Positions 3,452 to 23,164 of a DNA stretch of 32,000 nucleotides are shown here, piece by piece. Source of the DNA: Bellilinea caldifistulae (GTDB lineage Bacteria > Chloroflexota > Anaerolineae > Anaerolineales > Anaerolineaceae); NCBI RefSeq assembly GCF_001306055.1, contig NZ_LGHJ01000005.1, positions 1-32,000 on the forward strand, given 5' to 3'. A program made the position numbers and the translations under genes. Each line of letters starts with the position of its first letter. Position 1 is the first letter of the stretch. Below the pieces are notes generated by a model, which was not told where the DNA came from, searched no databases, and saw nothing but the letters and a program-made list of their open reading frames with translations.

Positions 3452-5098
3452 TTGAATCAGATAAAAACGAATAAGATTGCTGGTCTTGTGATCAATACTG
3501 AACATAAAAAAGGGCTGTATTCTTCGAGTTTCCACTTGTTTAAAGTGGCTATTCTCCTTTTCTTATTGTCGGGGTGTAATTCTCCTCAAGCGAATTCGAC
3601 TTCAGCTCTTCCTGTTACAGTGGTGGATTCCAACGGTCAAATCGAGGTATTTGCCCCTTTTGGATCGTCAGTTCTGGATGTTCTCCAAATGGGCAACATT
3701 GAACTGGGTTCCTTGGATCGCACCGAACCCCCTTCCTTTACCATCATCACCGAACCAACCACGATAAAAATTACCCGGGTTGAAGAAGAATTTGAACAAG
3801 AAGAAATTGTTATTCCATTTGAAAGACAAACCGTAAAAAACGAAAACCTCACCGAAGGCGAATCCTTACTGGTTCAACCCGGAGAAAATGGCATTCAACA
3901 AATCACCTATCGTCGTTTAATTGAAAACGGCGTTGAAACTTCACGATCGATTTTCAAAATCGAAGTCATAAAAGAAGCCAAACCCGAAATCTTGATGATT
4001 GGAATTCAATCTCCCTTTGTTCCACTGGAAATTCCAGGCAAACTCGCCTATCTAACCGCTGGCAATGCCTGGCTTATAGAACGAGACACCCGTCAGCGCA
4101 AGCCGATTGTTACGACTGGCGATTTAGATGGACGGATTTTTAGCCTTTCACCCAACGGGGAATGGCTACTTTTTACACGCAAATCCAACGCAGAGGGTGA
4201 AATCAACACCCTATGGGTGGTCAGCCTGGATCAGGAAAACGCGCAACCCATTAATCTCAACGTAAAAAATATCATTCACTTCGCCGAATGGCTACCTAAT
4301 CGTACGGCAACAATCCTGTATTCCACCGTCGAACCTCGCCCAACAGCTCCCGGTTGGCAAGCCAATAATGATTTGAGGCGGCTTGTATTTAATTCGAACG
4401 GAAGAGTCGTTCGTGATGAAAGCATCATCGAAACCAATGCGGGAGGAATTTACGGCTGGTGGGGAACCTCCTACCACATATCACCCTCGACCAATTCCAT
4501 CGCTTTTTCCCGCCCAGACGCGGTTGGTCTCGTCAACGAGGATGATGGAACCTTGAATCCTCTCATGAATCTGTTACCCTTCCAAACACGATCCGATTGG
4601 GCATGGGTTCCGGGTATTGAGTGGAGTTTGGACGGTAAAGTACTGTATGTGGTGAATCACGCCCCGATGGCGGGTGTTAGTGACCCGGAGTCATCCCCGC
4701 TTTTTGATTTGAATGCTTTTATCTTACCTTCAGGTCCGCTGGTAAAATTAATTTCACAAACCGGCATGTTTGCATATCCAAGCATTTCCAAGGGGAAAAC
4801 GGAAACTCAGGCATGGCTTGCTTACCTTGAGGCTATCTTTCCAGAACAGAGTGAAAATAGCCGTTACCGTCTGGTCGTAATGCAACCAGATGGCTCCAAT
4901 CGTAAAGTAATTTTTCCGACAGAAGGGGGTACTGGACTTGACCCGCAGAAAGTTGTCTGGTCACCCGCGCAAAACGATACTACTCACAATTACCTTGGTT
5001 TTATTTACCAGGGAAATGTCTGGCTCATTTCAACCCAAGATTGGCAGCCCAGGCAGGTGACTGGCGACAGCCTGATTACACGAATTGACTGGAAATAA
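3452..5098 (+). CDS. lipoprotein with DUF348-like and G5 domains plus a TolB/PD40-like beta-propeller
   Basis: Lipobox LLSGC after a hydrophobic h-region. DUF348-like VTVVDSNGQIEVFA...IKITRV. G5-like VQPGENGIQQITYRRLIENGVETSRSIFKIEVIKEAKPEILMIGI. PD40-like repeats (SLSPNGEWLLFTRKS, IAFSRPD). The start is uncertain: TTG 3452 or in-frame GTG 3488. Confidence 0.6.
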   Translation: MNQIKTNKIAGLVINTEHKKGLYSSSFHLFKVAILLFLLSGCNSPQANSTSALPVTVVDSNGQIEVFAPFGSSVLDVLQMGNIELGSLDRTEPPSFTIITEPTTIKITRVEEEFEQEEIVIPFERQTVKNENLTEGESLLVQPGENGIQQITYRRLIENGVETSRSIFKIEVIKEAKPEILMIGIQSPFVPLEIPGKLAYLTAGNAWLIERDTRQRKPIVTTGDLDGRIFSLSPNGEWLLFTRKSNAEGEINTLWVVSLDQENAQPINLNVKNIIHFAEWLPNRTATILYSTVEPRPTAPGWQANNDLRRLVFNSNGRVVRDESIIETNAGGIYGWWGTSYHISPSTNSIAFSRPDAVGLVNEDDGTLNPLMNLLPFQTRSDWAWVPGIEWSLDGKVLYVVNHAPMAGVSDPESSPLFDLNAFILPSGPLVKLISQTGMFAYPSISKGKTETQAWLAYLEAIFPEQSENSRYRLVVMQPDGSNRKVIFPTEGGTGLDPQKVVWSPAQNDTTHNYLGFIYQGNVWLISTQDWQPRQVTGDSLITRIDWK

Positions 5099-5124: not shown

Positions 5125-6084
5125 ATGAGAATTTTAGTAACCGGTGCCGCAGGATTTTTAGGTTCACACCTTTGCGAACGCTTGTTGAATGAAGGCCATT
5201 CAGTCGTTGGTATGGATAATTTCATCACGGGCAGCCCGGAGAATCTTGCTCATCTTACCAACAATCCAAGATTCGAGTTCATCCGCCACGATGTAGCTAA
5301 TTTTATTTTTGTGCCTGGTAAAATTGACGCTGTTTTGCATTTTGCGTCCCCCGCCAGCCCTAATCCATCTTCTCCCTATGGATACACCAATTTACCCATT
5401 CAAACCATGAAAGCCGGTGCATTGGGTACTCATAACACCCTTGGGGTCGCTCGCGCTCATAATGCCCGCTATCTGCTGGCGTCAACTAGCGAAATTTACG
5501 GTGATCCGTTGGAACACCCCCAAAAAGAGACTTACTGGGGTCATGTTGACCCAATTGGTATCCGATCCGTTTATGATGAAGCCAAGCGCTTCGCTGAAGC
5601 GCTGACGATGGCCTATCACCGCTACCACGGAATCGATACACGCATCGTTCGCATCTTCAATACCTATGGGCCAAGAATGCGATTAGACGATGGTCGGGTA
5701 GTCCCAAACTTTATTCAGCAGGCTTTGCGCGGAGAACCGCTCACCGTTTATGGAGATGGATTACAAACCCGCAGTTTTTGTTATGTAGATGATCTGATTG
5801 AGGGAATTTATCGGTTATTACTGTCCGACGAACATTTTCCAGTCAACATCGGTAATCCTGCAGAAATCACCATTTTGGAGTTTGCAGAAACCATTAACCG
5901 ATTGGTCGGCAATAAAGCCGGTATTATCATGAAAGAATTATCACGGTTAGGCGATGATCCTCAACGACGCCGACCGGACATTACCCGAGCAAAGGAAATT
6001 TTGAAATGGCAGCCAACGATCTCCTTAGAAGAAGGCATCAAAAAGACCATACCCTACTTCAAAATGAAATTGGGATTGGAATGA
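5125..6084 (+). CDS. UDP-glucuronate decarboxylase (UDP-xylose synthase-type SDR)
   Basis: [10 protein letters not shown] Rossmann motif. [39 protein letters not shown] contains the YxxxK catalytic motif and the UXS-type signature. Confidence 0.8.
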
Positions 6085-6545
6085 TTTTGACAAACTCCCG
6101 CGAACGAACCCGTTTTATCCGCTTTGCGATTGTTGGAGCAATTGGAGCAGCCATTGACTTCGGCGTGTTCAACCTTCTTACCCATTTCGTTCCTTATTTT
6201 CGGGAAAACGCAGTTTTTGCTCAGGCAATCTCCTTTACACTTGCCGTCTTCAGCAATTTCACCTGGAACCGCCTGTGGACTTATCCCGATTCCCGCAGCA
6301 AATCCATTATGCGCCAGTGGGTTCAATTTGCGGTTGTGAGTGTCATTGGATTGGCTATTCGTACTCCGATCTTCCTATGGTTGGAGGGTTTATTGATACG
6401 CACCTTCTCCAGTTGGTTTCCCAAAGGTGCTGCGACTCCAATTGTCATTGCCCACAATGCTGCTTTGGCAATTGTCATCGGAACAGTCATGATCTGGAAC
6501 TTCATCGCCAACCGATACTGGACTTACAACGATGTCACTTCTTGA
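6081..6545 (+). CDS. GtrA-family membrane protein (lipid-linked sugar handling)
   Basis: [23 protein letters not shown], four TM helices, C-terminal [13 protein letters not shown] 6081 overlaps the UXS stop (ATGA). The track ORF's 5' extension to 6006 lies inside the UXS gene. Confidence 0.8.
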
Positions 6546-9816: not shown

Positions 9817-10986
9817 TCAGCTCAAAAACATGGGCACACCCATGAAATCACGAATCTTGGGTTTGTAATTTTCAATGTCGTAATAAGCCGGTACATCCAC
9901 TCGTTTTCGACCCGCCAGAACCATCTCAATCGGCACGGTGGTGTATTTTCCACCATGTAAAGCGACCATTTTACCGGTCTCATTTCGACGGATTAGCTGA
10001 ACCGCCATTGTGCCAAATGACATCGCCACCATTCGATCTAACGAATCGGGAGCGCCAGATCGCATCAAGTACGCCAGCTGTTGATACATGGTATGTTGAC
10101 CGGTCAAGCGCTTGATTTCCTCGCAAACAATCTGACCAATTCCACCCAATTTCCGGTGGCCAAAGGGATCCGCTTCTCCACTTTCCACCACTTCACCACC
10201 TTCCATCACAGCGCCTTCGGATATGGTCATAATTGCATAGTTTGAGGGATTGCGGCGTTTATCTGCCATCAAAAAGTCAGCCAGTTTCTGCATATTGAAC
10301 GGTACTTCGGAAATGATAGCCCGATCAACATAAGCCAGGTAAGCCGTGATCAGACTGGTTTCTCCAGAATTTCTTCCAAATAATTCAACCACCCCAATCC
10401 GTTCATGAGAACCAACGGAAGTGCGCATATTGGTGATAAACTCAACACTTCGGGTGACTGCCGTGGAAAAACCGATACAATAATCCGTACCAAAGATGTC
10501 ATTGTCCATAGTTTTCGGACAGGCTACAATCGGGAATCCCTCTTTATGCAGTCTAACGGCGAAGGATAGTGTATCGTCCCCACCGATAGGTACCAATACA
10601 TCAATACCTAAATTGGCTAAAACCTCAAGAACATAATCGGTGTAATCAATCTTTTCCTCACCGGCTACTTTCTTCCCATAATTGGAATTTTTTAGAAAAT
10701 CTGGAGCATCTTTCAGTGATACCCGTTGAGGATTGGTTCGTGATGTATGTAGAACGGTTCCCCCTGTGCGGTCAATCGTACGAACATCTTCTTCGTGCAA
10801 TTCACGAACATAGTAATCACGCGTAGATGGCTCATTCTGATTGTAATGCAATAAACCTGCCCAACCCCGACGTATACCGATGACCCGATACCCCTGCTCT
10901 AAAGCATTCATCACAACTGCCTTGATGCAGGGGTTCAATCCCGGTACATCTCCACCCCCGGTTAAAATACCGATTGTTTTTGTCAT
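9817..10986 (-). CDS. 6-phosphofructokinase, PPi-dependent type predicted
   Basis: [38 protein letters not shown] lies 5 nt before ATG 10986. The track start at 10998 is a GTG inside that Shine-Dalgarno sequence. Confidence 0.8.
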
Positions 10987-11020
10987 ATTTACCTCCACCT
11001 TGAATAAAAGTTATGATGTC

Positions 11021-12076
11021 TCAGGTTGTTTCTTCATGTGAATAAGGAATTTGAAATGACACTACAGTTCCACTGCCACCGATGCGAGAATCGATGTTGA
11101 AGTAGCCACCCAGCATCTCAACCCGTTCTTTGATTAATTTCAAGCCCAAACCCTTGCCGGCCATTGCCTTGGAAGGATCAAAGCCCTTTCCATCATCTTT
11201 TACCTGCACTTTAATCAATTGAGAATCCATGATGATCGAAACCTCTATCTTTAATTTTTGGGAGAGGTCGTTATTGTGCCGGGCGGCATTCCCGATGATT
11301 TCCTGAAGTGAACGGAATATCAAGACCTCAATATAGGGTTCCAGTCGCCTTTCGGCGCCCATTATATCGAGCTTAATATCAACGCCACTTTCATTTTGGA
11401 AGTTTTCCACATATCGCTTGAGAGTGGGAAACAACCCCAAATCATCCAGCATCATCGGTCTCAGATCCGTGATGAACAAACGGACTTTTTGGAAGGTGTT
11501 CAAGGCGGCGGCCTTTAGATTCTCCAATTCCTGTTTTGCGCGAGTAGGGTCAACATCAAACAAACGACTGACAATTTCCATTTGAACCACAAAGTTCGAT
11601 AATGCCTGAGCCGGGCCATCGTGCATTTGTCTGGAGAGGCGCTGGCGTTCCGCCTCTTGAGCATCAATCAATTTCTGCAACAATACGGTTCCGCGTTCTT
11701 CCCCCGCTCCACCCATCTCCTCTTCTAAAAATCGGTTGGTTTTTTCAATTAAGTCCAATAATTCTTCAAGATATTGTTTTTTGGTTTGTAATTTTTCTAA
11801 TTGACTCCTTTTTTGAACCATTTGATTGAGGGATTCAATGGTTTCCTCATAAGTTCTGACAATATCCTGCCTTGGCAAACTGTCAATTTGAGCTTTAACA
11901 AAGTTCAATTGGGTAATTTTTTGCTTGTTAAGTTCGTTCAGCTTGGCGATTTGTGAATTTTGTAAATTGATCAAAGTATCATTGTCATCCAGATCTTTTG
12001 TGAATTGAGCCTTTTTTTCCCTTAAAAAGGTAAGATATTCTTCCCGTGTATCCTCATTCTTCAGATGATTGCTCAT
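11021..12076 (-). CDS. cytoplasmic DegS-like sensor histidine kinase (coiled coil + HisKA_3 + HATPase_c)
   Basis: No TM segment and a long heptad-like N-terminus. H-box ERQRLSRQMHDGPAQALSN. N-box GNAARHN. DDGKGF and GLGLKLIKERVEMLGG. Confidence 0.8.
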   Translation of the reverse strand: MSNHLKNEDTREEYLTFLREKKAQFTKDLDDNDTLINLQNSQIAKLNELNKQKITQLNFVKAQIDSLPRQDIVRTYEETIESLNQMVQKRSQLEKLQTKKQYLEELLDLIEKTNRFLEEEMGGAGEERGTVLLQKLIDAQEAERQRLSRQMHDGPAQALSNFVVQMEIVSRLFDVDPTRAKQELENLKAAALNTFQKVRLFITDLRPMMLDDLGLFPTLKRYVENFQNESGVDIKLDIMGAERRLEPYIEVLIFRSLQEIIGNAARHNNDLSQKLKIEVSIIMDSQLIKVQVKDDGKGFDPSKAMAGKGLGLKLIKERVEMLGGYFNIDSRIGGSGTVVSFQIPYSHEETT

Positions 12077-12142
12077 GGAGGCCCTCTCTTTTGTACAACT
12101 TGAAAATCATGCCAAGTATAGCACAACCTGTTGTTGCTGTTC

Positions 12143-13795
12143 TTATTTTTTAAACCAGGAAATCTCCCCCCACCCCCATTCCGCCTCCGGAAGCAACAAG
12201 AAGAAGTGAACTCCCTCGTGAGTCTCCAGCAAACGCACCCCACTCATATCGTGAGGGTTTGCGTACAGATTGGACAGGTTTTCCTGATTTTCTTCCAGAA
12301 GCAAGTAGGTCGCTCCGTATCTTTTCGCGGCTGCAAGGGCGTGACGGATATCCCCATCAGGGATGACAATACTGGGTCTTCTGGTAGCCCAATAAAAACC
12401 CGGCGGATTATTGACCATTGCAATAAATTGTTTGGAAATGTGGAGGTCATCAAGCCTTTCCCCAACTCTCTGATACCGCTCGATACTTTCATTCCACACA
12501 AGATGATTGGGGACTCTATATACGCGCTGGTAAAAAAACCATCCTGCAATGAATAGATTGATCAAGATTAAAAAGGTGCCAAACAACGTCATTGAAGTAG
12601 ACATACCCCAACCGCGCGCCTTTTTCATCCAGATAATAAGCTGCTCCAGGCCAGCAACCGACATGCTCCAAAAGAATATCTGAATAGCTGCTCCCGAATG
12701 CAAAAACCCCCCACGTGAACCAGCAAACGGAAACACAATAGTCATCATTCCCAATATCAACAACCACATCATGGTTTCAAATTTTACTGCCGAATGATGT
12801 CTTTTGCTCCAGCACCCCACCAGGATAAGTGGTACCAGGATGATTGAACCCTGAACAACAAGAAAGTTCTGCAAATTCAAGCTGAGTGCATCCAGCCTTG
12901 CGTGGATAATGGCCGGCAATCCGGCTTTAAGCCAGTTTGTAAAGGTCAGGTGATCATTCGGATAAGCAAAAAGCTGGTTGTAGCTTGTCAGCCAAAGACT
13001 TTTTCCGTTGCCGGGTGGAAACATACTCCCAAAAACAACCCAATTTCGATAGTACCAACCCCCTGTCAGAATCAAATAACCGAGTAAAAGAGCCAACAAC
13101 CCGTTTATGGCTACGCGCATTTTTTGGCGGGATTGCCATGGCCGGATTCTCCAAATGACAACCCCAAAAGCGGAAATCAACCAAATCAAACCATCCGCCC
13201 TGGTCAAATGCATCCAACCGGCTATAAAACCCAGCAGTAAAAATCTTTGAAAACTCTCTAATCCTCCAATCCACTGATTGTTTGCAAAAAATGCAATAAT
13301 GACAAATAACCCTCCCCCTATCATATAAGGTATAAAGGTTTCAGGAATGGTCAGATAAAGGGCATAAACCCCCGGAAAAACTGCAAGGCCGCCGGCTATC
13401 CAGGCATAGGCGGGATTTGTTATCACTTTCCTGGTAAGATAAACGGTTAGTACCGGCAAAAATCCAGCCATCAAGAGAAACGGTAATTTTGCCCACACAA
13501 AATCTGGAGAACGACCAAGCCACATGCCCATAAACGCAAGCAGCGACGGTAGAGGCATCCAGTAAACAAATGCCGGAGCAGGCAATCCTTTTGGATTAGC
13601 GAGGTAATTCCAAATATATGGTTCTACAAAGCCATTTCCTTCAAAGAGTTGCAGACCTCCCACCGTGTAATATGCTGAATCCATATATCCCGGTCCCTTT
13701 TGAAATTGTGTTCCAATCAGGGCAAAGATTATTCCACTCAGGTACCAAAACCAATTTGATTGGGGGATTTTTCTTGCCATCTCCCATCCTTTCAT
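12143..13795 (-). CDS. polytopic membrane protein, GT-C fold (ArnT/PMT-like) glycosyltransferase candidate with a C-terminal soluble domain
   Basis: At least 11 hydrophobic helices. Acidic first-loop motif GYMDSAYYTVGG. C-terminal non-membrane domain of about 125 aa. ATGA overlap with the upstream gene. Confidence 0.55.
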   Translation of the reverse strand: MKGWEMARKIPQSNWFWYLSGIIFALIGTQFQKGPGYMDSAYYTVGGLQLFEGNGFVEPYIWNYLANPKGLPAPAFVYWMPLPSLLAFMGMWLGRSPDFVWAKLPFLLMAGFLPVLTVYLTRKVITNPAYAWIAGGLAVFPGVYALYLTIPETFIPYMIGGGLFVIIAFFANNQWIGGLESFQRFLLLGFIAGWMHLTRADGLIWLISAFGVVIWRIRPWQSRQKMRVAINGLLALLLGYLILTGGWYYRNWVVFGSMFPPGNGKSLWLTSYNQLFAYPNDHLTFTNWLKAGLPAIIHARLDALSLNLQNFLVVQGSIILVPLILVGCWSKRHHSAVKFETMMWLLILGMMTIVFPFAGSRGGFLHSGAAIQIFFWSMSVAGLEQLIIWMKKARGWGMSTSMTLFGTFLILINLFIAGWFFYQRVYRVPNHLVWNESIERYQRVGERLDDLHISKQFIAMVNNPPGFYWATRRPSIVIPDGDIRHALAAAKRYGATYLLLEENQENLSNLYANPHDMSGVRLLETHEGVHFFLLLPEAEWGWGEISWFKK

Positions 13796-15267
13796 GGCCG
13801 ATTCCCGAATTCGTAAATATCTAAATCACCGATTTGTGTGTGACTTAATTGTATGTATTGGCTGGAAAGAGCCTCAAGAACCGGATGCTTAAAGCCCCTC
13901 TCTGAAAATTCCTGAACGGCTTTCCTGAAAACGACAAAGAAGAATCGTTCTTTTTCCCGAATTATTCGGGAGTAATCTTCTATCGGGTAAATCCCCATCG
14001 CTTGTTGGGAAACCAGCGCCAGTGTATCGTTGGGAGAGCCGGGTTCATCTGCGAGAAAAGCCGCATCGTGATTTTCATCATAAAAGCGCATCGGGAAGTA
14101 GCTGAGTTTATTGTCATGCAAAATGAACACATCCCGGTTTTGGGGTAAATTGAGATATTCCACAGCCTGACGGAAAGGCGAGCGAGGAAATTCAGCATAG
14201 GTATAAAAAGAAGGTAAAGATATTGCAGCTGTCACAAGAAAACCCCCTAAAAGAAATGCTCCTATTCCTCGTTTCCATCTCAAGACAATGATCCTTGCCG
14301 CTACAATGGAATACATAACACTGGAGAGAATGAAAACCCTTGTAACAAAAACCGGCTGCATGAAGTAGGAAATCACAAATAACAGAATGGGTAATCCGAA
14401 CAGAATCAGGTTTAACAGCATTATGGCTGACCTGTCACTCCGATCTTTCCACAATTCCCAGAGTACAACAAAAAACAGCTGTGCGCTGAAAACGGCTGCT
14501 ATTGGCAACAATGCACCTTTCAAGGGTAGATTGGCATGAAATAATATAACAGCCTGAAAAATCTCCACAATCCCAGGCCTGGGGGTCCAGAAAGCTCTCT
14601 GAACTTTGGCAATTTGACCAGGCAACAAGAAAGCCCATGGTAAATAAAACAATCCAATAACCAGCTGAGCTTTAATTATTTGTATCTGGTCCTCCCATCT
14701 TTTTTTCCAAAGAAGATAGACGTTTCCCCAAATTAAACCGAACCCCGCTAAGGCATGGCTATACATCGCCACGACACCGCTCAAGACTAACCCAACCCAA
14801 AAACCCGCCTTATCCTGTTTTTCTTCAAATATTCGGTAAAAAAACCAGTAATAACCTAGCTGCCCCGCCAGCATTAAAGCGTACATCCGTAAATCCTGGC
14901 TGTGATAAATTTGCAGCGGCGATATCGCCAGCAATATACCGGCGGTGATACCAGTGCGCCACCCAAACATCCGCCGGGCAAGGTCAACCGCGATAAACCA
15001 GCCGATTATGGACAAGCCAACACTGAACAACCTCAAGAAAACCAGATTATCATTCAATCCCTGCCAAAAATGAAGCAAAAAATAATACAAAGGCGGCATC
15101 GTGTCTGCTGCCGTTCCTTTGATAATATTCCCCAAATCCTGACGGGCAAGGAAAATACTGAAGGCATCATCATACTGGATTTCACGGCTTCTGATCCCCG
15201 TCAGCCGTAATCCAACGGCTAGCAGTAGAGCAAGTGTCAAGTAAGACCGCTCACTTCCTTTCGACAT
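13792..15267 (-). CDS. GT-C fold glycosyltransferase, GT39/GT83 (PMT_2/ArnT)-like
   Basis: REIQYDDAFSIFLA acidic loop after TM1, a multi-TM core and a C-terminal soluble domain of about 135 aa. Confidence 0.65.
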   Translation of the reverse strand: MSKGSERSYLTLALLLAVGLRLTGIRSREIQYDDAFSIFLARQDLGNIIKGTAADTMPPLYYFLLHFWQGLNDNLVFLRLFSVGLSIIGWFIAVDLARRMFGWRTGITAGILLAISPLQIYHSQDLRMYALMLAGQLGYYWFFYRIFEEKQDKAGFWVGLVLSGVVAMYSHALAGFGLIWGNVYLLWKKRWEDQIQIIKAQLVIGLFYLPWAFLLPGQIAKVQRAFWTPRPGIVEIFQAVILFHANLPLKGALLPIAAVFSAQLFFVVLWELWKDRSDRSAIMLLNLILFGLPILLFVISYFMQPVFVTRVFILSSVMYSIVAARIIVLRWKRGIGAFLLGGFLVTAAISLPSFYTYAEFPRSPFRQAVEYLNLPQNRDVFILHDNKLSYFPMRFYDENHDAAFLADEPGSPNDTLALVSQQAMGIYPIEDYSRIIREKERFFFVVFRKAVQEFSERGFKHPVLEALSSQYIQLSHTQIGDLDIYEFGNRP

Positions 15268-15269
15268 AT

Positions 15270-16520
15270 CTACGAAGATGCCCTGGATTCGAGCGTTTCA
15301 AACCACAATCGCGGTGGTCTAACAGCCCACCAGCGATTCCAATACAGGACGAGGATCAAAAACAGGGGTAATGGCAGGAACATCACCGGGCTTTGAATGG
15401 GTTGGTAATCCATCTCTACTGTGGTTAGAAAAATCTCCCAGATTCCGACAAAAAGTAAAAACATGGTAGCCACGGAAAGAACTACTCCCCGATTCCGCCA
15501 ACGCTCAACCCAAACAGCGAAAGTTAAAACAACCCCCGGATAAGCCACGATGAAATTACCAGGATCGGTTTGCAACCCGACCCAAAAGCTGACAGTTATA
15601 GTGAGACACGCGGTCCACAAAAAAGCTCGAAATTCACTCTTTCGATTGATGAACCATTCCACCATCAAAATCAACACCACCATCCCGGAAACCACTCGGC
15701 CAAGGCGCTCACCTCCCTGTGGGATAATTGCCCCTAATGCAGCCGGCAAAGTACCCGGAGGATTATAAGATGGATAGCGTAGAACTTCCCGTAAGTTTTG
15801 GATGATCCAATCCGGGATCAAAATTAACGCCAAACCAATTAGGAAGCCCATACCAATCAAAAACCAGATGATAATTTTCCAGCGGCGATGGCTGGCCGCC
15901 CAAAATAACACAAACACAATCAACAACAAAACAACCTGCGGTTTGATGGTGATTAAAGCCATGAGAATCCCGGCCAGCTCATCATTACCGGCGCGGACGG
16001 CAAGTAATATCCCCACTATGGCGAGGGCGATTAAAATGACCACATTCCCCAGAATCACTGGTCTTAAGGCATGATACCAGAAGACCGAAAACAATAAAAA
16101 CAAGGCCAGAATGAGCGGTTTTGGCCGCCATCGTACCAACCCTAAAGACAAAAACGCCATAAGGATCAAACCGGATTCCAAAACCGCCATCCAAACCGCA
16201 CGGGCAAGGTTGTAATCTGCTATCAGCGCAAACGGCAAAAAGACGAGAATCGAATAGAGAGGATAAGCAACCCGCAATTCATGTTCACCCGCCCTGGCTG
16301 GCCGGCCATACACCATATTTTGAATGCGAAGTGCCACCTCATCAGAATACGGGCTCAACCCATCTTCAAAAAAGGATTTCGTTCCCATCCAGTGAACTAA
16401 AAAATCATTGCCCCCTGGATTTTGAGCCGTATAACGATAATTCCCCCACACCAACAGACCAAACAAACCACTTCCGAGCACAAAAAGCACTATAATTGCC
16501 AATGAGGAATTTCGTGACAT
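15270..16520 (-). CDS. polytopic membrane protein, GT87/DUF2029-like glycosyltransferase candidate
   Basis: NPGGNDFLVHWMGTKSFFEDGLSPY after TM1. About 12 TM helices and no soluble domain. It stops 2 nt before the next gene's start. Confidence 0.5.
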   Translation of the reverse strand: MSRNSSLAIIVLFVLGSGLFGLLVWGNYRYTAQNPGGNDFLVHWMGTKSFFEDGLSPYSDEVALRIQNMVYGRPARAGEHELRVAYPLYSILVFLPFALIADYNLARAVWMAVLESGLILMAFLSLGLVRWRPKPLILALFLLFSVFWYHALRPVILGNVVILIALAIVGILLAVRAGNDELAGILMALITIKPQVVLLLIVFVLFWAASHRRWKIIIWFLIGMGFLIGLALILIPDWIIQNLREVLRYPSYNPPGTLPAALGAIIPQGGERLGRVVSGMVVLILMVEWFINRKSEFRAFLWTACLTITVSFWVGLQTDPGNFIVAYPGVVLTFAVWVERWRNRGVVLSVATMFLLFVGIWEIFLTTVEMDYQPIQSPVMFLPLPLFLILVLYWNRWWAVRPPRLWFETLESRASS

Positions 16521-16579
16521 CGAGAACGCTTCTCCTTAAAGTACCGACCAACCCCTAATCAATTATAATTCAGCCCAGT

Positions 16580-17383
16580 ATGAAGACAAAAATTTCACTT
16601 GCCCAATTTGAAGTTCAAATTGGAAAGCCTGAGCAAAATTTTAAAACAGCACTGCCCTATATTGAACAGGCTGCCCGCTCAGGCTCTTCAATCATTTTAC
16701 TGCCCGAATTATGGAGCAGTGGTTACGATTTACAAAACGGTTCAACATATACCCAAATTAATCAGGAAATTATTGGCGAGTTAAAGTCACTTTCCGAACA
16801 ATATCATCTTTCTATTGGGGGGTCTTATATCACTTGCGACGAAGTGGGCTGCCGCAACACTTTCTTGATCACCTTGCCGGATAAAAGTGTCACTCCTCCT
16901 TATCACAAAGTCCATTTATTCCGTCTACTAGATGAAGATCAGTTTTTTCAGCCGGGTGACCAATATCTCTCCGTTGATTTTAACTGGGCTAAAGCCGGTT
17001 TGGCCATCTGTTATGATCTTCGTTTTCCGGAATTGTTCCGTTTTTATTCAAGGCAAGGTGCATCTTGTGTTTTGATCGTTGCCCAATGGGGTGCCAAACG
17101 TGCCGAACACTGGCGCACATTTCTCAAAGCCAGAGCCATCGAAAATCAATTGTTTGTGGCGGGTGTCAATGCAATTGGAATGATTGGAAATACCCCACTG
17201 GCCGGGTACAGTGCAGTCGTATCTCCGTGGGGAGATGTACTGGCAGAAGGGTCTTCCAATCAAGAAGAATTAATCACCGTAGAAATGAACTTTGATTTAA
17301 TTGATGAGGTAAAACAACACTTGAATTCAGGACAGGATCGCCGTGATGATTTGTATAAGGAATGGTATAACCGGTTTCCTTAA
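16580..17383 (+). CDS. carbon-nitrogen hydrolase (nitrilase superfamily, omega-amidase/Nit-like)
   Basis: E-K-C triad contexts: ILLPELWSSGY, YHKVHLF, GLAICYDLRFPE. Confidence 0.85.
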   Translation: MKTKISLAQFEVQIGKPEQNFKTALPYIEQAARSGSSIILLPELWSSGYDLQNGSTYTQINQEIIGELKSLSEQYHLSIGGSYITCDEVGCRNTFLITLPDKSVTPPYHKVHLFRLLDEDQFFQPGDQYLSVDFNWAKAGLAICYDLRFPELFRFYSRQGASCVLIVAQWGAKRAEHWRTFLKARAIENQLFVAGVNAIGMIGNTPLAGYSAVVSPWGDVLAEGSSNQEELITVEMNFDLIDEVKQHLNSGQDRRDDLYKEWYNRFP

Positions 17384-18900
17384 TCCGACTGGTCCCCCTC
17401 TCGTGCAACGACAATACTGACCTCATCCTCGTAGAGTACTCTCCAACCCTTTTTGATTAATTTCTCTACTACGGGTTGTTGGGGCTCAATCAAAAACCAG
17501 CCGATTTTCCATTTTTCTACGGCTTCTTCCCACCCCTCACCGGTGTTGAGAATGTTCAGCCAATCCTTCAGAATTTCATCGCCAAATAGGTCGGTTCTCC
17601 CGTCAACAAAGACCGGTGTTTCAGGCATATTCCAGATCAAATAACCTCCCCAACCGTAACTATTCCATAATCTGCCGTCCGGAATTCCCTTCTCTTTCAA
17701 ATACGCTACGGCTTTTTGAGGATAGAACCGAGCCTCATAGGCACTAACCACCACTGGATGAGTCACATAAAACCATTTTCCAATGGCAACCATTCCCAGT
17801 AATCCGATTATCGTCATATTGATGACCCGGCGAAAGTTGAATGGAAAAACAACCTGGTTTCGACTCATCCGATTACCATGTTGATTAAAGAAATTTTTCA
17901 AATTTTTTGTAATATCAACGAAGATCTCAGGCAAATGATTACCAACGGTCAGGGTAGCAAAAATCGCAAACGGTGCAAAATTGCGTTTTGCAACCAGGGC
18001 TAAATAAGTAAATCCCAAAAAGCCGACAATTTCAAAACCACTGACCGTCTTTTTTGAATATGCGAATGAAAAGATAACAATAAAAAGTAAAACAAGAAAT
18101 GGCTGCATTGCCAGTTGATGAAAATCAGGTGACGCCCACTCATCAATCAAGGATTGCAAGGTTTGCACCCCTACGGTCTTAAAAGGAACAATCAGGGTAT
18201 TTAAACCATTCGGATTGATTAAGACACCTGACAAAGCCACCAGTATCCAAATGAAATATTTTTTCAGCCTCCCAAATCGCTTCCCTTCATTCGAGGGTAT
18301 CAAGAGAGAATCCAGGATCTCGCCCGCCAGCAGAAAAAGTAGAAGAAAAATTCCCAAACCATATCCACCGTGAAGATTGGACCAAAGAACAAACAAAGTA
18401 AAAAACCATATCGTACCCTGAAAACCGCCATGCTTCCGATATGTTCGAATCAGCCCCAATAAAATTACGAACATCAATAACGAAAATATTTGCGGGCGTG
18501 GTGACCAGACGAAAGAACAGATGATCGCAGCCAAAATCACAAACCACGCTTTAAATAAGGCTCCGCCCTCCATGATTTTATATAATATTCCCATACTGGC
18601 TACCGCTGTAATCGCTACACATAAACCCAACCCCCAAAAACCGGCATTTTCAAAAAACCAATAAAGAACAACCTCACCCAGCCAAGAATGATTAATCCAG
18701 TTCTCCCCTGCCCGGGTATAAGAAAACACATCCTTTAGCAGTGGACTTCCGTTCTGAATTGTCCATTGACCTGCCCTGAGATGCCACCACATGTCGCTGT
18801 CCAGCGGCACACGCACAGCCATGATAAACACCAGCAACAGGGTAATGCAAAACAGCAAATTATCGAGGTTTTTTTGATCTTTTTCCAAAAGGTTGATCAT
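17380..18900 (-). CDS. polytopic membrane protein, GT-C-like, with a C-terminal soluble domain
   Basis: PLDSDMWWHLRAGQW acidic loop after TM1. About 12 TM helices. C-terminal domain of about 115 aa. ATGA overlap with the upstream gene. Confidence 0.45.
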   Translation of the reverse strand: MINLLEKDQKNLDNLLFCITLLLVFIMAVRVPLDSDMWWHLRAGQWTIQNGSPLLKDVFSYTRAGENWINHSWLGEVVLYWFFENAGFWGLGLCVAITAVASMGILYKIMEGGALFKAWFVILAAIICSFVWSPRPQIFSLLMFVILLGLIRTYRKHGGFQGTIWFFTLFVLWSNLHGGYGLGIFLLLFLLAGEILDSLLIPSNEGKRFGRLKKYFIWILVALSGVLINPNGLNTLIVPFKTVGVQTLQSLIDEWASPDFHQLAMQPFLVLLFIVIFSFAYSKKTVSGFEIVGFLGFTYLALVAKRNFAPFAIFATLTVGNHLPEIFVDITKNLKNFFNQHGNRMSRNQVVFPFNFRRVINMTIIGLLGMVAIGKWFYVTHPVVVSAYEARFYPQKAVAYLKEKGIPDGRLWNSYGWGGYLIWNMPETPVFVDGRTDLFGDEILKDWLNILNTGEGWEEAVEKWKIGWFLIEPQQPVVEKLIKKGWRVLYEDEVSIVVAREGDQSD

Positions 18901-20582
18901 TGCGCGCTATCAGTTTGAATAAATAATTTTTCGAAATCAACTATCCGTATAGGATTTGACAGGTTGTAATAAATGACAAAGTCACCAATCTGTTTCTCGT
19001 TCCATAAAATTTTTCTCTCTTGGAGCAAACTACGCAGTTTTTGATCCAGGGCAGGATTTCGAGTGGTTATCAAAGCCACCTTGTCCGATTCCTCAACCAT
19101 TTGTGTATAGAGCGGGTAACGATCATCGCGCCGCGTATATCTTAAATCTGGATGATACGGGAATCGGGGACTGAAAATGATCTCTTCGTGTGTAAGAAAC
19201 GCCAGCGGATAAGCAACCCAGTAGTTCGTATAACCCCTCAATTCGCCATTTTCCCGCAGATATTGAATTACTTCCGGCATATCTCCCATATCCACCCGTG
19301 CAGGGGCGTAAAATTGGGTTGTCAAACCCGGTGGATTGGATGCTGTACATTGCAAATTTCCCCACAGGTTGAAAAGTGCAATCAACCCGGCCAGACTTAA
19401 ATATGCAGGCTTCTTTTTACCCCATTCATCCAGAACTTTTCCCCCCATCAGACTTAATACCAGCCAAACGGGTAAAAAATATCTTCCACTTGGGTCAACA
19501 CCAAACGAAGTAAACACAAAACCGAGAATGAAAGTAAAGATAACCCCTTCAATCACTTTGACTTGAAACGAACGAGGCGATCTGATCCAATCCCAAAAAA
19601 TTTTCCCCCATAAAAGTAATGTGAATGGGATCAATGGCAATCCCAGCCAGAAAACATCCCACGGAGGACGCAACCCGATTGCAGCAGGCAAACCCAACAC
19701 TACAAAGTAGACCATATGATTAATCGTTCTTAACCAAAAAGGCTCACGCTCCACTGCCACAGCCGCACCGAATAATTCGTGAATCAGTGAGCCTAAGCCA
19801 TTTTGAAATGCAAAAAACCACCAGGGAAATGAGCCCACCAGTAATCCCACCAAAACCAGGGTTATCCTCCAGGTAATGATTCTTAAGTTTTTAATCCGGA
19901 AGGTACGAAGTAAAATTCCGATACCTGCCGGAACACTGTAAACCATAGTCAACCCATTCACCCATAATCCAAACCCACACAAAAAACCCCATAACAACCA
20001 CAAAATAACGGAGTGGCTCCCTAGTCTAAATGTACGCATTCCTGATGCACGATTAACTTCTGTATCGGCTTCACCACCGCTTTTACTAACTCGAAAACTG
20101 ATTTCTGAACTTGCTTCTGAATATTTCAACAAGTAAAATGTTGTTATCAAAATTAAATTCCCGATCAGCAAGGCTTCGCCATATCCCCCTAAACTGACCG
20201 TAGTATATAGCGTCGTATTGACCGGCGGTATTGCCAGTAATAAGGTAGCGATCAAACCGGCACGGAACGATCCAAAAAATTGATAACCGACCCAAAAACC
20301 TGTCAATATCGTTAAAAGATATAAAATTACCTGAACAAGCCTGATTCCAAAAACCGATTGACCAAAAGCCTTAAAAAAAAATGCTACAAGGAAGGCATCT
20401 AAACTGCCCATGTAGGCCTGTCCGTAGAAAAAGATGGGCTTTTCCCCCGCCAATATGTGGCGAGCCATTAACCCCACCACTGCTTCATCTGCATTGAAGG
20501 GAAAAACATTTAAAACAAGCAGGGAAACTTTCAGAGATAGCCCCAGTAAAATCACGAAGGCCAAAAGCAGGTATCGCTTCAT
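18897..20582 (-). CDS. GT-C fold glycosyltransferase, ArnT/PMT (GT83/GT39)-like
   Basis: FPFNADEAVVGLMARHI after TM1 (typical DE loop), a multi-TM core and a C-terminal soluble domain of about 150 aa. Confidence 0.65.
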   Translation of the reverse strand: MKRYLLLAFVILLGLSLKVSLLVLNVFPFNADEAVVGLMARHILAGEKPIFFYGQAYMGSLDAFLVAFFFKAFGQSVFGIRLVQVILYLLTILTGFWVGYQFFGSFRAGLIATLLLAIPPVNTTLYTTVSLGGYGEALLIGNLILITTFYLLKYSEASSEISFRVSKSGGEADTEVNRASGMRTFRLGSHSVILWLLWGFLCGFGLWVNGLTMVYSVPAGIGILLRTFRIKNLRIITWRITLVLVGLLVGSFPWWFFAFQNGLGSLIHELFGAAVAVEREPFWLRTINHMVYFVVLGLPAAIGLRPPWDVFWLGLPLIPFTLLLWGKIFWDWIRSPRSFQVKVIEGVIFTFILGFVFTSFGVDPSGRYFLPVWLVLSLMGGKVLDEWGKKKPAYLSLAGLIALFNLWGNLQCTASNPPGLTTQFYAPARVDMGDMPEVIQYLRENGELRGYTNYWVAYPLAFLTHEEIIFSPRFPYHPDLRYTRRDDRYPLYTQMVEESDKVALITTRNPALDQKLRSLLQERKILWNEKQIGDFVIYYNLSNPIRIVDFEKLFIQTDSAQ

Positions 20583-20614
20583 AGTTGAATGGTAGTAAAA
20601 CCTTTTTGCTTGAA

Positions 20615-20636
20615 AATACAGTAATATTATTGTATT
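20615..20636. promoter_or_regulatory. 22-nt near-perfect palindrome in a divergent promoter region (candidate operator)
   Basis: AATACAGTAATATTATTGTATT is self-complementary at 20 of 22 positions (one mismatched pair). It is centred in the 100-nt gap between divergent GT-C genes. Confidence 0.4.
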
Positions 20637-20682
20637 CAGGATTGGAATTCACTACCAAACAATTTTATCGGGGCATTACCCA

Positions 20683-21969
20683 ATGATTCAAAACCTGAAG
20701 AAAAAAGCCTTTCTTTTTGTTGTTATTTTTCTTTTCAGCCTTTTATATTTTATTGGAATTCGTGAAGTTCCCTTTCACCCAGATGAAAGCACCCAAATTT
20801 TCATGAGCCGGGATGTTGATTTTTTCTTCTCCCAACCTTCCTACCTTTCCTATAATCCAAACAATTCTGAAGATTTGCGTCAGCGATACCGATTGCTTGA
20901 TCCACCTGTCAGCCGCTGGTTTATCGGCATGTTCGGCTTGATTTTTAAGGTCCCCCCGTTACCGGCCGATTGGGATTGGGGAAAATCGTGGGAAGAAAAC
21001 GTACAATCGGGTGCTTTGCCTCCCCCATCCACCCTTTTGATTTCTCGATTAGCAGTCAGTTTCGTCTTTCCGTTGCTTCTTTACTTTGCTTATAAAACGG
21101 GCGAAGTGCTGGCCGATAAGAAAACTGCCTGGCTTAACCTTGTTTTTACAGCCTTGAATGCCTTAATCCTGCTCCATACTCGCCGGGCAATGGCAGAAAG
21201 TCTTTTAGCCTTTTTTTCTTGCCTTTCTCTTTATCTTCTGGTTTCAGGGAAAAAGCCCGTTTGGCTGCTGGCAGTTCCAATCGCATTGGCATTTAATGCC
21301 AAATACTCAACCGCTCCACTGGTTTTGGCTGGATGGATTAATTGCCTGATGAGTTCTTCAAATTCGCCTTTCCACCATCGTTTGAAACCGGTGCTGCTTT
21401 ATTCAATTATTTTTATCCTGACTACATTTTTACTCAATCCGGTTTTATGGTCATCCCCACTGGATGCTTTGAAAGCTGCCGCCAAAGAAAGACAAAATTT
21501 ATTAGCCGCTCAAACGACTGCAATTGGAGGTTTCAATCCCTCTCAAACACCCCAAACCGTTCCAGAACGTTTATTGGCACTAATCGCCCAGATTTATATC
21601 GCCCCACCAGCGGTTGCTGATGTTGGAAACTATCTTTCTGCTACAGAACTCCCCGCCCAAATTTACTTCTCCCGCCCATGGAATAATCTAACCAATGGAT
21701 TTTTCAAGGGAGGCTTCTTTCTTTCCCTGACCATCATTGGCCTGTTCTGGATGATCCGCCGGCATTGGAGTTCAATATGGAAATTTTCAAATCCGGCCAC
21801 TCTTTTTCTGCTGACTTTTATCGTTCAATTCGCTGGAATTATCGGTGGAATTCCACTCGCTTTTCAGAGGTACTATCTACCCCTTATGCCTTACATCACC
21901 TTCTTCATTGGATACGCCATAAGCCAGGGGATTGATCTTGGTAAAAACACAATCAAACGTTCGATTTAA
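20683..21969 (+). CDS. GT-C fold glycosyltransferase, PMT_2-like, no C-terminal soluble domain
   Basis: VPFHPDESTQIFMSRD acidic loop after TM1. About 11 TM helices. Confidence 0.55.
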   Translation: MIQNLKKKAFLFVVIFLFSLLYFIGIREVPFHPDESTQIFMSRDVDFFFSQPSYLSYNPNNSEDLRQRYRLLDPPVSRWFIGMFGLIFKVPPLPADWDWGKSWEENVQSGALPPPSTLLISRLAVSFVFPLLLYFAYKTGEVLADKKTAWLNLVFTALNALILLHTRRAMAESLLAFFSCLSLYLLVSGKKPVWLLAVPIALAFNAKYSTAPLVLAGWINCLMSSSNSPFHHRLKPVLLYSIIFILTTFLLNPVLWSSPLDALKAAAKERQNLLAAQTTAIGGFNPSQTPQTVPERLLALIAQIYIAPPAVADVGNYLSATELPAQIYFSRPWNNLTNGFFKGGFFLSLTIIGLFWMIRRHWSSIWKFSNPATLFLLTFIVQFAGIIGGIPLAFQRYYLPLMPYITFFIGYAISQGIDLGKNTIKRSI

Positions 21970-22036: not shown

Positions 22037-23164
22037 TCAAATATGCTTGTAATATACTCGATGATTCTTATAGGGTATTCCCCCGACATTGATCAGATCT
22101 TTTCGCATTTGAACAGCCGTTTCTGCCACCTGGGTCAATTCAAAATGTTCAAATCCATATTCCTTGATGGTTTTATCCATTTCTGAATATAACAAGGCAT
22201 TTCCACCTCGTCCCTGATATTCCGGTAGAATTCCCGCTCCATTTAAAGACACCCATTTCGTTCTCTTCATTTCCGCCAGTAAATCAATAATTGCCCAGGG
22301 CGTCAACCGGCCTTTTGCCCGTTGTAGTGCCGCCGAAACATCTGGAAAACCGAACAGGAATCCCACAATCTTATCCCCATAGAGAATGACTTTAATCAAA
22401 CGCGGATCGGCAATCGTCAACAGGTTCTGCACCACAAAATCAATCTCCCGCTGCGTCAAGGGGTAATATTCCCAATTGTTCACAAAAGTCTTGTTATAGG
22501 CTTCTCCAATTTGAGGTGCGTAAGCCTTTAATTCCCGCTTGGTATTAAAGGTTACTACCCGAAAAGTGCCCTTTTCCTTGACCCGCTGGGCAACCAGATG
22601 AACTTTTTCTGGCATCTGAAATTTATCCCGATGAAGATAACACGAGACGAAGTCCACTTCTTTTTGAAATCCCAAATTTTCTACCAGCTTCACGTAATAG
22701 GGAGGGTTGTAATTCATCATCACCATCATTTGGCGGTGTTCAAATCCTTCAATTTGAATACCGTAACCATCAAACGGACTTAAGCCTTTGGGACCAACCA
22801 CTTCATTCAATCCACGAGCATGCGCCCATTCAAACACCCGATTGAACAAAGCGTTAGCCACATCTTGATCGTCAACACATTCGAACAAATAAAACTGAGC
22901 CTGACGGGTGTCATGGTATTCGTTGAAAGGCTTATTCTCCAACGCTCCAATACGGCCAACCATTTCCCCATTCATGCGAGCCACAAAAAACTCCCCTTCG
23001 GAATGTTCATAAAAGGGATGTTTTTTCGGATTCAACATCAACTTGATATCACTCAGAATGGGCGGTACCCATTGAGGAATATTTCGATAAATTTTGAAGG
23101 GAAATTCAACAAATTCATTGACCGCTTTTTTATTGGATAAGTCAACCTTTTCAATTGTGATCAT
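22037..23164 (-). CDS. GNAT-superfamily N-acyltransferase, two-lobed, about 375 aa, substrate unknown
   Basis: Acyl-CoA binding-type motif EYQGRGGNALLY in the C-terminal half. GNAT-like FVARMNGEMVGRIGAL in the N-terminal half. Confidence 0.6.
   Translation of the reverse strand: MITIEKVDLSNKKAVNEFVEFPFKIYRNIPQWVPPILSDIKLMLNPKKHPFYEHSEGEFFVARMNGEMVGRIGALENKPFNEYHDTRQAQFYLFECVDDQDVANALFNRVFEWAHARGLNEVVGPKGLSPFDGYGIQIEGFEHRQMMVMMNYNPPYYVKLVENLGFQKEVDFVSCYLHRDKFQMPEKVHLVAQRVKEKGTFRVVTFNTKRELKAYAPQIGEAYNKTFVNNWEYYPLTQREIDFVVQNLLTIADPRLIKVILYGDKIVGFLFGFPDVSAALQRAKGRLTPWAIIDLLAEMKRTKWVSLNGAGILPEYQGRGGNALLYSEMDKTIKEYGFEHFELTQVAETAVQMRKDLINVGGIPYKNHRVYYKHI

Follow-up and report, generated by a model that had tools for sequence, protein, structure and literature searches.

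We present here an analysis of six genes for large polytopic membrane proteins, which together occupy positions 12143-21969 of a 32,000-nucleotide (nt) stretch of Bellilinea caldifistulae DNA (contig NZ_LGHJ01000005.1; the whole stretch is called the window). The proteins, designated A416, B491, C550, D506, E561 and F428 by letter and length in amino acids (aa), are all membrane glycosyltransferases of the GT-C class. Their families are mostly unclassified, though the fold is a familiar one. The same genes stand in the same order in relatives across Anaerolineae, and they probably form a jointly acting system for an envelope glycan.

For each protein an alignment of orthologues was used (A, 47 sequences; B, 38; C, 55; D, 55; E, 52; F, 45), and the orthologues of C, D, E and F were additionally scanned one by one against Pfam at E<=0.01. 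AlphaFold2 (AF2) models were built from the alignments for C550 and D506; A, B, E and F were placed by Pfam. The assignment of all six proteins to the GT-C class follows from the direct Pfam matches of A and B, the Pfam matches obtained with orthologues of E and F, the Foldseek matches of the C and D models, and the acidic residue in the loop after the first transmembrane segment (TM1). An assignment to a transporter or other non-glycosyltransferase family, named beforehand by the first-pass annotation as fatal to this view, did not occur in any search. The motifs which that annotation had placed in the first loop (GGNDF, YDDAF, YMDSAYY, LDSDMWWH, FNADEA and FHPDES) were every one found in the translations right after the first hydrophobic segment, and the acid itself is invariant in five of the families: D33 and D34 in B (38/38 orthologues), D39 in C (55/55), D36 in D (55/55), D32 and E33 in E (52/52) and D34 and E35 in F (45/45). 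In family A the corresponding D39 is retained in 41/47 sequences.

Sequence comparison places these proteins less closely. NCBIfam contains no model that fits one of these proteins. Nothing was returned when C, D, E and F were searched against PDB sequences, and the family profiles of A, B, C, D and E gave nothing meaningful there. Kinship in sequence to any solved GT-C enzyme, PimE, Emb, Aft and ArnT included, is not detectable; the sole signal is the marginal match of the F-family profile to glycosylphosphatidylinositol mannosyltransferase 1 (PIG-M, E=0.0019).

A416 matches the Pfam family PF09594 (GT87) with E=2.3e-11 and 44.4 bits against a cut-off of 25, over profile positions 3-234 of 237. 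Its motif after TM1 reads NPGGNDF, in which F40 is kept in 47/47 orthologues. With the A-family profile no PDB sequence was found at E<=1, PimE included. By Pfam, A416 is a GT87-type (GT-C_B-like) member, not a demonstrable orthologue of PimE. The description of the whole array as GT87-like fits A416 only. B491 matches PF13231 (PMT_2) with E=1.2e-9 and 39 bits against a cut-off of 26.1, and its Y32-D33-D34 motif is invariant. It is a PMT_2-type GT-C glycosyltransferase with a C-terminal domain which, by predicted topology, would be extracytoplasmic.

E561 and F428 stay under the Pfam cut-off for PMT_2 (E=0.0016, 19.1 bits, and E=0.021, 15.5 bits, respectively), and their orthologues carry the assignment. 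PMT_2 was matched by 33/52 orthologues of E, at best with 6.9e-9, and PMT by 2/52; for F the counts are 23/45 and 16/45. The loop-1 motif of E is the D32-E33 pair ('DE'), and in F the whole H32-P33-D34-E35 segment is invariant in 45/45. On these grounds E561 is probably a PMT_2-like GT-C glycosyltransferase with a C-terminal domain, and F428 a PMT/PMT_2-like one lacking such a domain.

No Pfam match was obtained for C550 itself, and few of its orthologues have one (PMT_2 7/55, PMT 2/55). Its AF2 model (predicted local distance difference test score, pLDDT, 93.4; predicted template modelling score, pTM, 0.92) was compared with PDB structures by Foldseek; the top 32 matches all have the GT-C fold, with AglB as the best (9e-9), and STT3, ArnT, ALG12, AftA, PglB, Pmt4, ALG9, AftB, Emb and PIG-U are among the further ones. 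For both models, C550 and D506, the matches at E<0.1 are GT-C-fold proteins only, with TMq up to 0.59-0.60, and the helix maps contain about 11-13 long helices. C550 is thus predicted by its model to be a GT-C_A-fold glycosyltransferase with a C-terminal alpha/beta domain.

D506 is the member with the largest family behind it. Neither D506 nor any of its 55 orthologues has a Pfam match (0/55 for PMT_2, 0/55 for PMT, none for an STT3 model), and D506 with seven diverse orthologues gave noise only even at E<=10. The AF2 model (pLDDT 91.1, pTM 0.91) retrieved GT-C enzymes in all of the top 31 Foldseek matches to the PDB; STT3A was matched at 2e-8 with TMq 0.57-0.60, 6 of the top 10 are STT3, and other matches are DPY19, AglB, PglB, ArnT, AftA, Emb and ALG3. 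In loop 1 the residues D36, W38, W39 and H40 are invariant. The conserved positions are D34, D36, W38, W39, H40, N70-W73, R135, P136, W173, N175, H177, E254, W255, H261, W417-Y420, D433 and D437, and most of them would lie in the predicted extracytoplasmic loops or in the C-terminal domain, according to the topology read from the model. At E<=1e-3 the D-family profile collects 35,522 cluster representatives (clustering at 50% identity), of which 9,323 remain at E<=1e-30. The family extends beyond Chloroflexota, e.g. to Pyrinomonadaceae (Acidobacteriota), and in the clusters checked all members with a source name are called 'hypothetical protein'. We consider D506 to be, as far as its model can tell, STT3-like in fold: a GT-C_A-fold enzyme whose very large family is not covered by Pfam.

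The six proteins had been described as paralogues, which proved to be overstated. No pair of them reaches E<0.1 in BLASTP, and in profile-profile comparison (hhalign) 3/15 pairs are related: C-E with a probability of 94.9% (E=4e-8), E-B with 78% (E=1.8e-5) and F-B with 51% (E=1.6e-4); the remaining 12 pairs stay under 5% probability. Judged by sequence, these are six separate, ancient orthologous families and not the expansion of one paralogous group. B, C, E and F seem to make up a loose PMT_2/ArnT-like supergroup, and A (GT87) and D stand apart from it.

All six genes were found in the list of open reading frames (ORFs) as the very frames that the first-pass annotation had given, and they are collected in the table below together with the other features discussed. 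They are arranged in three transcription units: A-B-C, E-D and the divergent F. At the E/D and B/C junctions the frames overlap by 4 nt, and 2 nt lie between A and B. The stop codons of D and of the convergent CN-hydrolase gene, a seventh gene inside the array, overlap by 4 nt as well. All six proteins are strongly hydrophobic, with ~9-12 hydrophobic segments each. The soluble C-terminal domain of 115-150 aa reported for four of the six is present in B, C, D and E, the size being only roughly right: ~135 aa follow the last hydrophobic segment in B and ~160 aa in E, and according to the models the domain spans residues 426-550 in C and about 405-506 in D. A and F have no such domain. Every gene is full-length and conserved, having 38-55 aligned orthologues with a mean column identity of 43-58%, and on the sequence evidence the six-gene array is not a product of chance.

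Two details of the layout may be added. For C550 two starts come into question: the longer frame, of 550 aa, is the one overlapping B by 4 nt, and a start at Met6, giving 545 aa, is called on an identical public contig and in the closest homologue (P0001, 98% identical). A promoter-like sequence, TTGTCT-16-TATAAT, is located at 16589-16562(-), just upstream of A416; it is a consensus match only and a weak pointer, and the promoter/terminator scan was no richer than shuffled sequence.

Table. Positions of the array genes and of other features mentioned in the text, within the window or, where an L number precedes the positions, within the respective locus of a relative
Feature	Positions	Strand	Remarks
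A416	15270-16520	-	416 aa; first gene of the A-B-C unit
B491	13792-15267	-	491 aa
C550	12143-13795	-	550 aa, possibly 545 aa from Met6
D506	17380-18900	-	506 aa
E561	18897-20582	-	561 aa; first gene of the E-D unit
F428	20683-21969	+	428 aa; divergent from E
CN-hydrolase (nitrilase superfamily)	16580-17383	+	soluble; Pfam 9.7e-42; between A and D, opposite strand
GtrA-family small membrane protein	6081-6545	+	Pfam PF04138 GtrA_DPMS_TM 1.9e-23; outside the array
UXS-like extended short-chain dehydrogenase/reductase (SDR), UDP-sugar dehydratase/decarboxylase type	5125-6084	+	GDP_Man_Dehyd 7.8e-52; Epimerase 4.7e-49
G5-domain protein	3452-5098	+	548 aa
PFK	9817-10998	-	
GNAT-like protein	22037-23164	-	375 aa
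G (GT-C-like), example	L083:11590-13101	+	no Pfam match; profile-related to the C, F and E families
H (GT87-like), examples	L027:11424-12599; L009:7004-8194; L010:11423-12592		
Wzy_C (O-antigen ligase/polymerase-like)-TPR protein	L021:11436-13787		783 aa; counterparts in L018, L022, L038
Tandem copies of D	L081:1497-6352; L021:8147-11449		also in L061, L073

Conservation of the locus was followed with the D-family profile, which in species-representative genomes identified 80 loci, all of them in Anaerolineae; the genera Bellilinea, Longilinea, Ornatilinea, Leptolinea, Levilinea and Anaerolinea are represented, and the best D match, 70% identical, comes from a Bellilinea sp. As established by tblastn and hidden Markov model searches, the order of the locus is a DsbH-like gene, a GNAT gene, F on the minus strand, E, D, in brackets the CN-hydrolase gene, A, B, C and, further on, genes for a histidine kinase and PFK. 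Genes scattered in close relatives would, according to the first-pass annotation, likewise have been fatal to its view, and they are not scattered: the exact order F-E-D-A-B-C is present in 31 of the 45 loci that have full 10-kb flanks, among them loci of Bellilinea, Longilinea, Ornatilinea, Leptolinea and other Anaerolineae, down to about 35-45% identity. Among the others of these 45, 7 have D alone, and the rest are variants without B or with D duplicated.

In many relatives the locus is longer than in the window. A GT-C-like gene, G, follows directly after C in 44 loci; it encodes 503 aa with the motif FPLDDAWIHQ after TM1. A GT87-like gene, H, of ~390 aa, with weak GT87 hits and a GYGD motif after TM1, is found in 24 loci, mostly directly after D. 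The window has no G in the place where it would be expected (12076 to 12143), nor have its closest relatives, the loci L002-L007, in which gene C abuts the histidine kinase gene; H is absent from the window and from L002-L007 too. With its six genes the window therefore represents a reduced form of a locus which elsewhere comprises eight or more GT-C genes. In a few Anaerolineales a Wzy_C-TPR gene and an extra PMT_2 gene are both inserted between D and A.

The loci with D alone (Anaerolinea, Levilinea) were considered as cases of cluster loss, and this explanation was dropped. Paralogues of the D family exist elsewhere in these genomes, so the D-alone loci may be paralogues of D; locus tags C0396_01835 and C0396_07830, for example, are far apart, and L083, from a metagenome-assembled genome (MAG) of the same species cluster, has the complete cluster. 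Separately, D is duplicated in tandem in several Anaerolineales MAGs, in 2-3 copies which are 23-28% identical to D506, and the loci with such copies tend to lack B. The CN-hydrolase gene keeps its position in many relatives, not in all.

The GNAT-like protein and PFK encoded on the two sides of the array are 96-98% identical in L002-L004, whereas the GT-C proteins are only 64-88% identical to their counterparts there, so the rate of evolution is much higher in most of the GT-C genes than in the genes around them.

As to the donor side, a GtrA-family gene is located 6 kb from C, and overlaps by 4 nt (ATGA, 6081-6084) with the UXS-like SDR gene. Its start is likely Met26 of the ORF beginning at 6006, which would leave a protein of 154 aa, the length called in L083. 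L082 and L083 (53% and 44% identity) have the pair equally far from their clusters. GtrA is a candidate flippase of a polyprenyl-phosphate sugar, and the SDR-GtrA pair is a plausible supplier and flippase for such a sugar after the scheme of GtrA, GtrB and a GT-C enzyme (PMC11127046); what connects the pair with the array is proximity alone. Next to this pair, also in relatives, stands the gene of a G5-domain protein, whose orthologues match DUF348 as well and, faintly, PD40; this protein may be wall-associated.

The same gene order across Anaerolineae and the translational coupling within A-B-C and E-D are what the functional proposal is built on: the enzymes therefore most likely act on one envelope glycoconjugate. 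In such a system the loop-1 Asp (or Asp-Glu, Asp-Asp) would activate the acceptor hydroxyl, either as a general base or by binding metal or acceptor. The sugar would be taken, on the outside, from a polyprenyl-phosphate donor that has been flipped across the membrane, and the acceptor or the growing glycan would be held by the extracytoplasmic C-terminal domains which B, C, D and E carry. Each enzyme might then add a different linkage to the same product, be it a wall-associated polysaccharide, a lipoglycan or a surface glycoprotein. Fold class, conservation of the catalytic loop and synteny are what the data show; the type of donor, the outward-facing active site, a joint action of the enzymes and the kind of product they make are inferred from established GT-C biology. 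The additional GT-C genes and the occasional Wzy_C-TPR gene at the locus in relatives fit a pathway of lipid-linked glycan synthesis, and the conserved GtrA-family gene 6 kb away lends circumstantial support to polyprenyl-phosphate donors.

Several observations speak against this proposal. The unrelated CN-hydrolase gene, for which no connection to glycosylation was found, interrupts the units of the array. The flanking genes (PFK, histidine kinase, GNAT, DsbH-like) show the same degree of synteny as the array itself, so part of the order signal may reflect general stability of the region. Membership varies as well: several loci have no B, some have D in duplicate, and G and H are absent from the clade of the window. 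Among the window ORFs there is also no GT2 polyprenyl-phosphate-sugar synthase, and a priming phosphoglycosyltransferase or an attachment enzyme (LCP-type or other) is missing as well; the Ppm1/GtrB-type donor synthase, a search for which had been recommended, is therefore lacking there. The single 'assembly line' of the first-pass annotation is more than the data show, given the three transcription units, the lineage-variable membership and the synteny of the flanks; a joint pathway is plausible, with synteny as the sole argument for it.

The three transcription units with the CN-hydrolase gene among them, the syntenic flanks and the variable membership would also agree with six genuine GT-C enzymes which function independently on different targets (different wall polymers, lipids or proteins) and are kept together by regional stability, and so would the families not being close kin of each other. 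We hold such an explanation to be possible though unlikely: a locus that unites six to eight enzymes of the same fold throughout a class of bacteria is hard to explain without a functional link, E/D and B/C are translationally coupled, and the relatives that differ add more GT-C or Wzy_C genes at this very locus.

It is rather improbable, on our estimate, that the locus serves protein glycosylation, with E and F O-glycosylating secreted or surface proteins and D506 transferring a lipid-linked glycan en bloc. An Asp-Glu motif in loop 1, invariant in E and F, is typical of PMT-family enzymes, and orthologues of F do match Pfam PMT; the Wzy_C family, members of which are added to the locus in some relatives, includes the O-oligosaccharyltransferases PglL and PilO. 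The best structural matches of D506, like those of C550, are the GT66 enzymes STT3, AglB and PglB, and for its C-terminal alpha/beta domain Foldseek retrieved the isolated globular domain from the C-terminus of AglB. STT3 carries the motifs D-P-W-F-N-Y-R and S-W-W-D-Y-G-Y-Q-I-(8)-L-V-D-N-N-T; the first resembles D-x-W-W-H-L-R in extracytoplasmic loop 1 of D506, and the WWDYG segment resembles S-Y-G-W-G-G-Y-L-I-W-(6)-V-F-V-D-G-R-T, so that GWGGYLIW...VFVDGRTD stands in register with WWDYGYQI...LVDNNT. Within the Y-G-W-G-G-Y segment W417, G418 and G419 do not vary at all and Y420 hardly varies.

The differences from GT66 are considerable, however. In D506 the WWDYG motif is replaced by G-W-G-G-Y, from which the Asp is missing, and instead of an acidic second DxD/ExD motif there is W-S-N-L-H-G-G-Y. 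Homology of the WWDYG region was tried with 120 retrieved STT3 core fragments, the top one being 97% identical to the STT3 query; hhalign did align the two in the predicted register (D506 419-472), but not significantly (E=0.015, probability 3%), and membership of D506 among oligosaccharyltransferases is therefore not claimed. Neither of the STT3 Pfam models matches any of its 55 orthologues. Since C550 too matches AglB and STT3 best, these structural neighbours are not specific evidence for D506 and may reflect the general GT-C_A fold, and the locus contains no candidate acceptor protein.

That some or all of the proteins are not glycosyltransferases, being transporters or non-catalytic proteins of GT-C fold such as PIG-U, can be rejected as very hard to sustain: C and D have no Pfam assignment and PIG-U is among the weaker structural matches of C, but no transporter family appeared in any search, all significant structural matches are GT-C enzymes, and the Asp in the catalytic position is invariant.

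Under the preferred reading, in which the enzymes act jointly on an envelope glycan, the closest analogue in function is the set of GT-C enzymes in Corynebacteriales (PimE, MptA/B/C, EmbA/B/C and AftA-D), which builds lipomannan/lipoarabinomannan and arabinogalactan from decaprenyl-P-mannose and decaprenyl-P-arabinose. Common to both are several different GT-C enzymes, GT87-type ones included, of which several have C-terminal extracytoplasmic domains; a presumed sequential action on the outer side of the membrane of a bacterium lacking lipopolysaccharide (LPS); and a GtrA-like gene nearby, comparable with Rv3789. AftA, AftB and Emb are also among the structural matches. Sequence relationship or orthology is lacking, on the other hand. 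The organisms belong to different phyla, the genes studied here form one compact locus, no genes for phosphoribosyl pyrophosphate/decaprenyl-phosphoryl-arabinose synthesis (PRPP/DPA) or Ppm1 are near, and the proteins are much smaller than Emb and AftD.

With the PMT_2/ArnT/PMT enzymes (PF13231, PF02366; GT83, GT39) the array is linked by B, which passes the PMT_2 threshold, by orthologues of C, E and F that match PMT_2 or PMT, by the DD or DE motif of loop 1, and by the GT-C_A fold with ArnT and Pmt4 among the structural matches. It differs in that C, E and F themselves remain below the Pfam thresholds, the MIR domain and PMT_4TMC are absent, and there is no lipid A as a substrate for an ArnT. 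The three-component Gtr systems (PMC11127046) are similar in combining a GT-C enzyme with a conserved neighbouring GtrA, here coupled to a nucleotide-sugar-modifying gene; unlike them, the window contains no GtrB-type GT2 enzyme, has six GT-C genes instead of one, and keeps GtrA 6 kb away with unrelated genes between. The lumenal enzymes of the endoplasmic reticulum (ER), ALG3/9/12/6/8/10 with STT3, are likewise a series of ~7 different GT-C enzymes; ALG9, ALG12 and ALG3 occur among the structural matches, and one member of the array is STT3-like. This is analogy only, as there is no orthology and nothing that would indicate a lipid-diphosphate-linked oligosaccharide or N-glycosylation. In literature searches no paper describing this cluster was found.

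Chloroflexota stain Gram-negative, are often multilayered, and are without the LPS and BAM pathways; that polysaccharide or protein makes up their outer layers is no more than 'suggested' (PMC13319060, citing Sutcliffe 2011). It is conceivable, though we would call it a long shot, that the locus is the machinery for a major outer envelope polymer, a lipoglycan or wall polysaccharide, behind these extra layers. In its boldest form the arrangement would be like that of the ER lumen: outside the membrane, a lipid-linked glycan would be extended step by step by the GT-C enzymes and then transferred en bloc by the STT3-like D506.

Judged by the comparisons made here, what is new is a compact class-wide locus composed of mostly unclassified families; the fold was already known. 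If the enzymes turn out to be independent decorators, the result would be a useful improvement of annotation only. That Anaerolineae have many GT-C genes is in itself not surprising. Six to eight glycosyltransferases that are kept in synteny throughout the class and are predicted to act outside the membrane nevertheless provide concrete candidate genes for an envelope polymer, and defining the donor and acceptor of D506 would annotate tens of thousands of 'hypothetical proteins'. The conserved locus and the huge D family may thus serve as handles on the question of what the envelope of these bacteria is made of.

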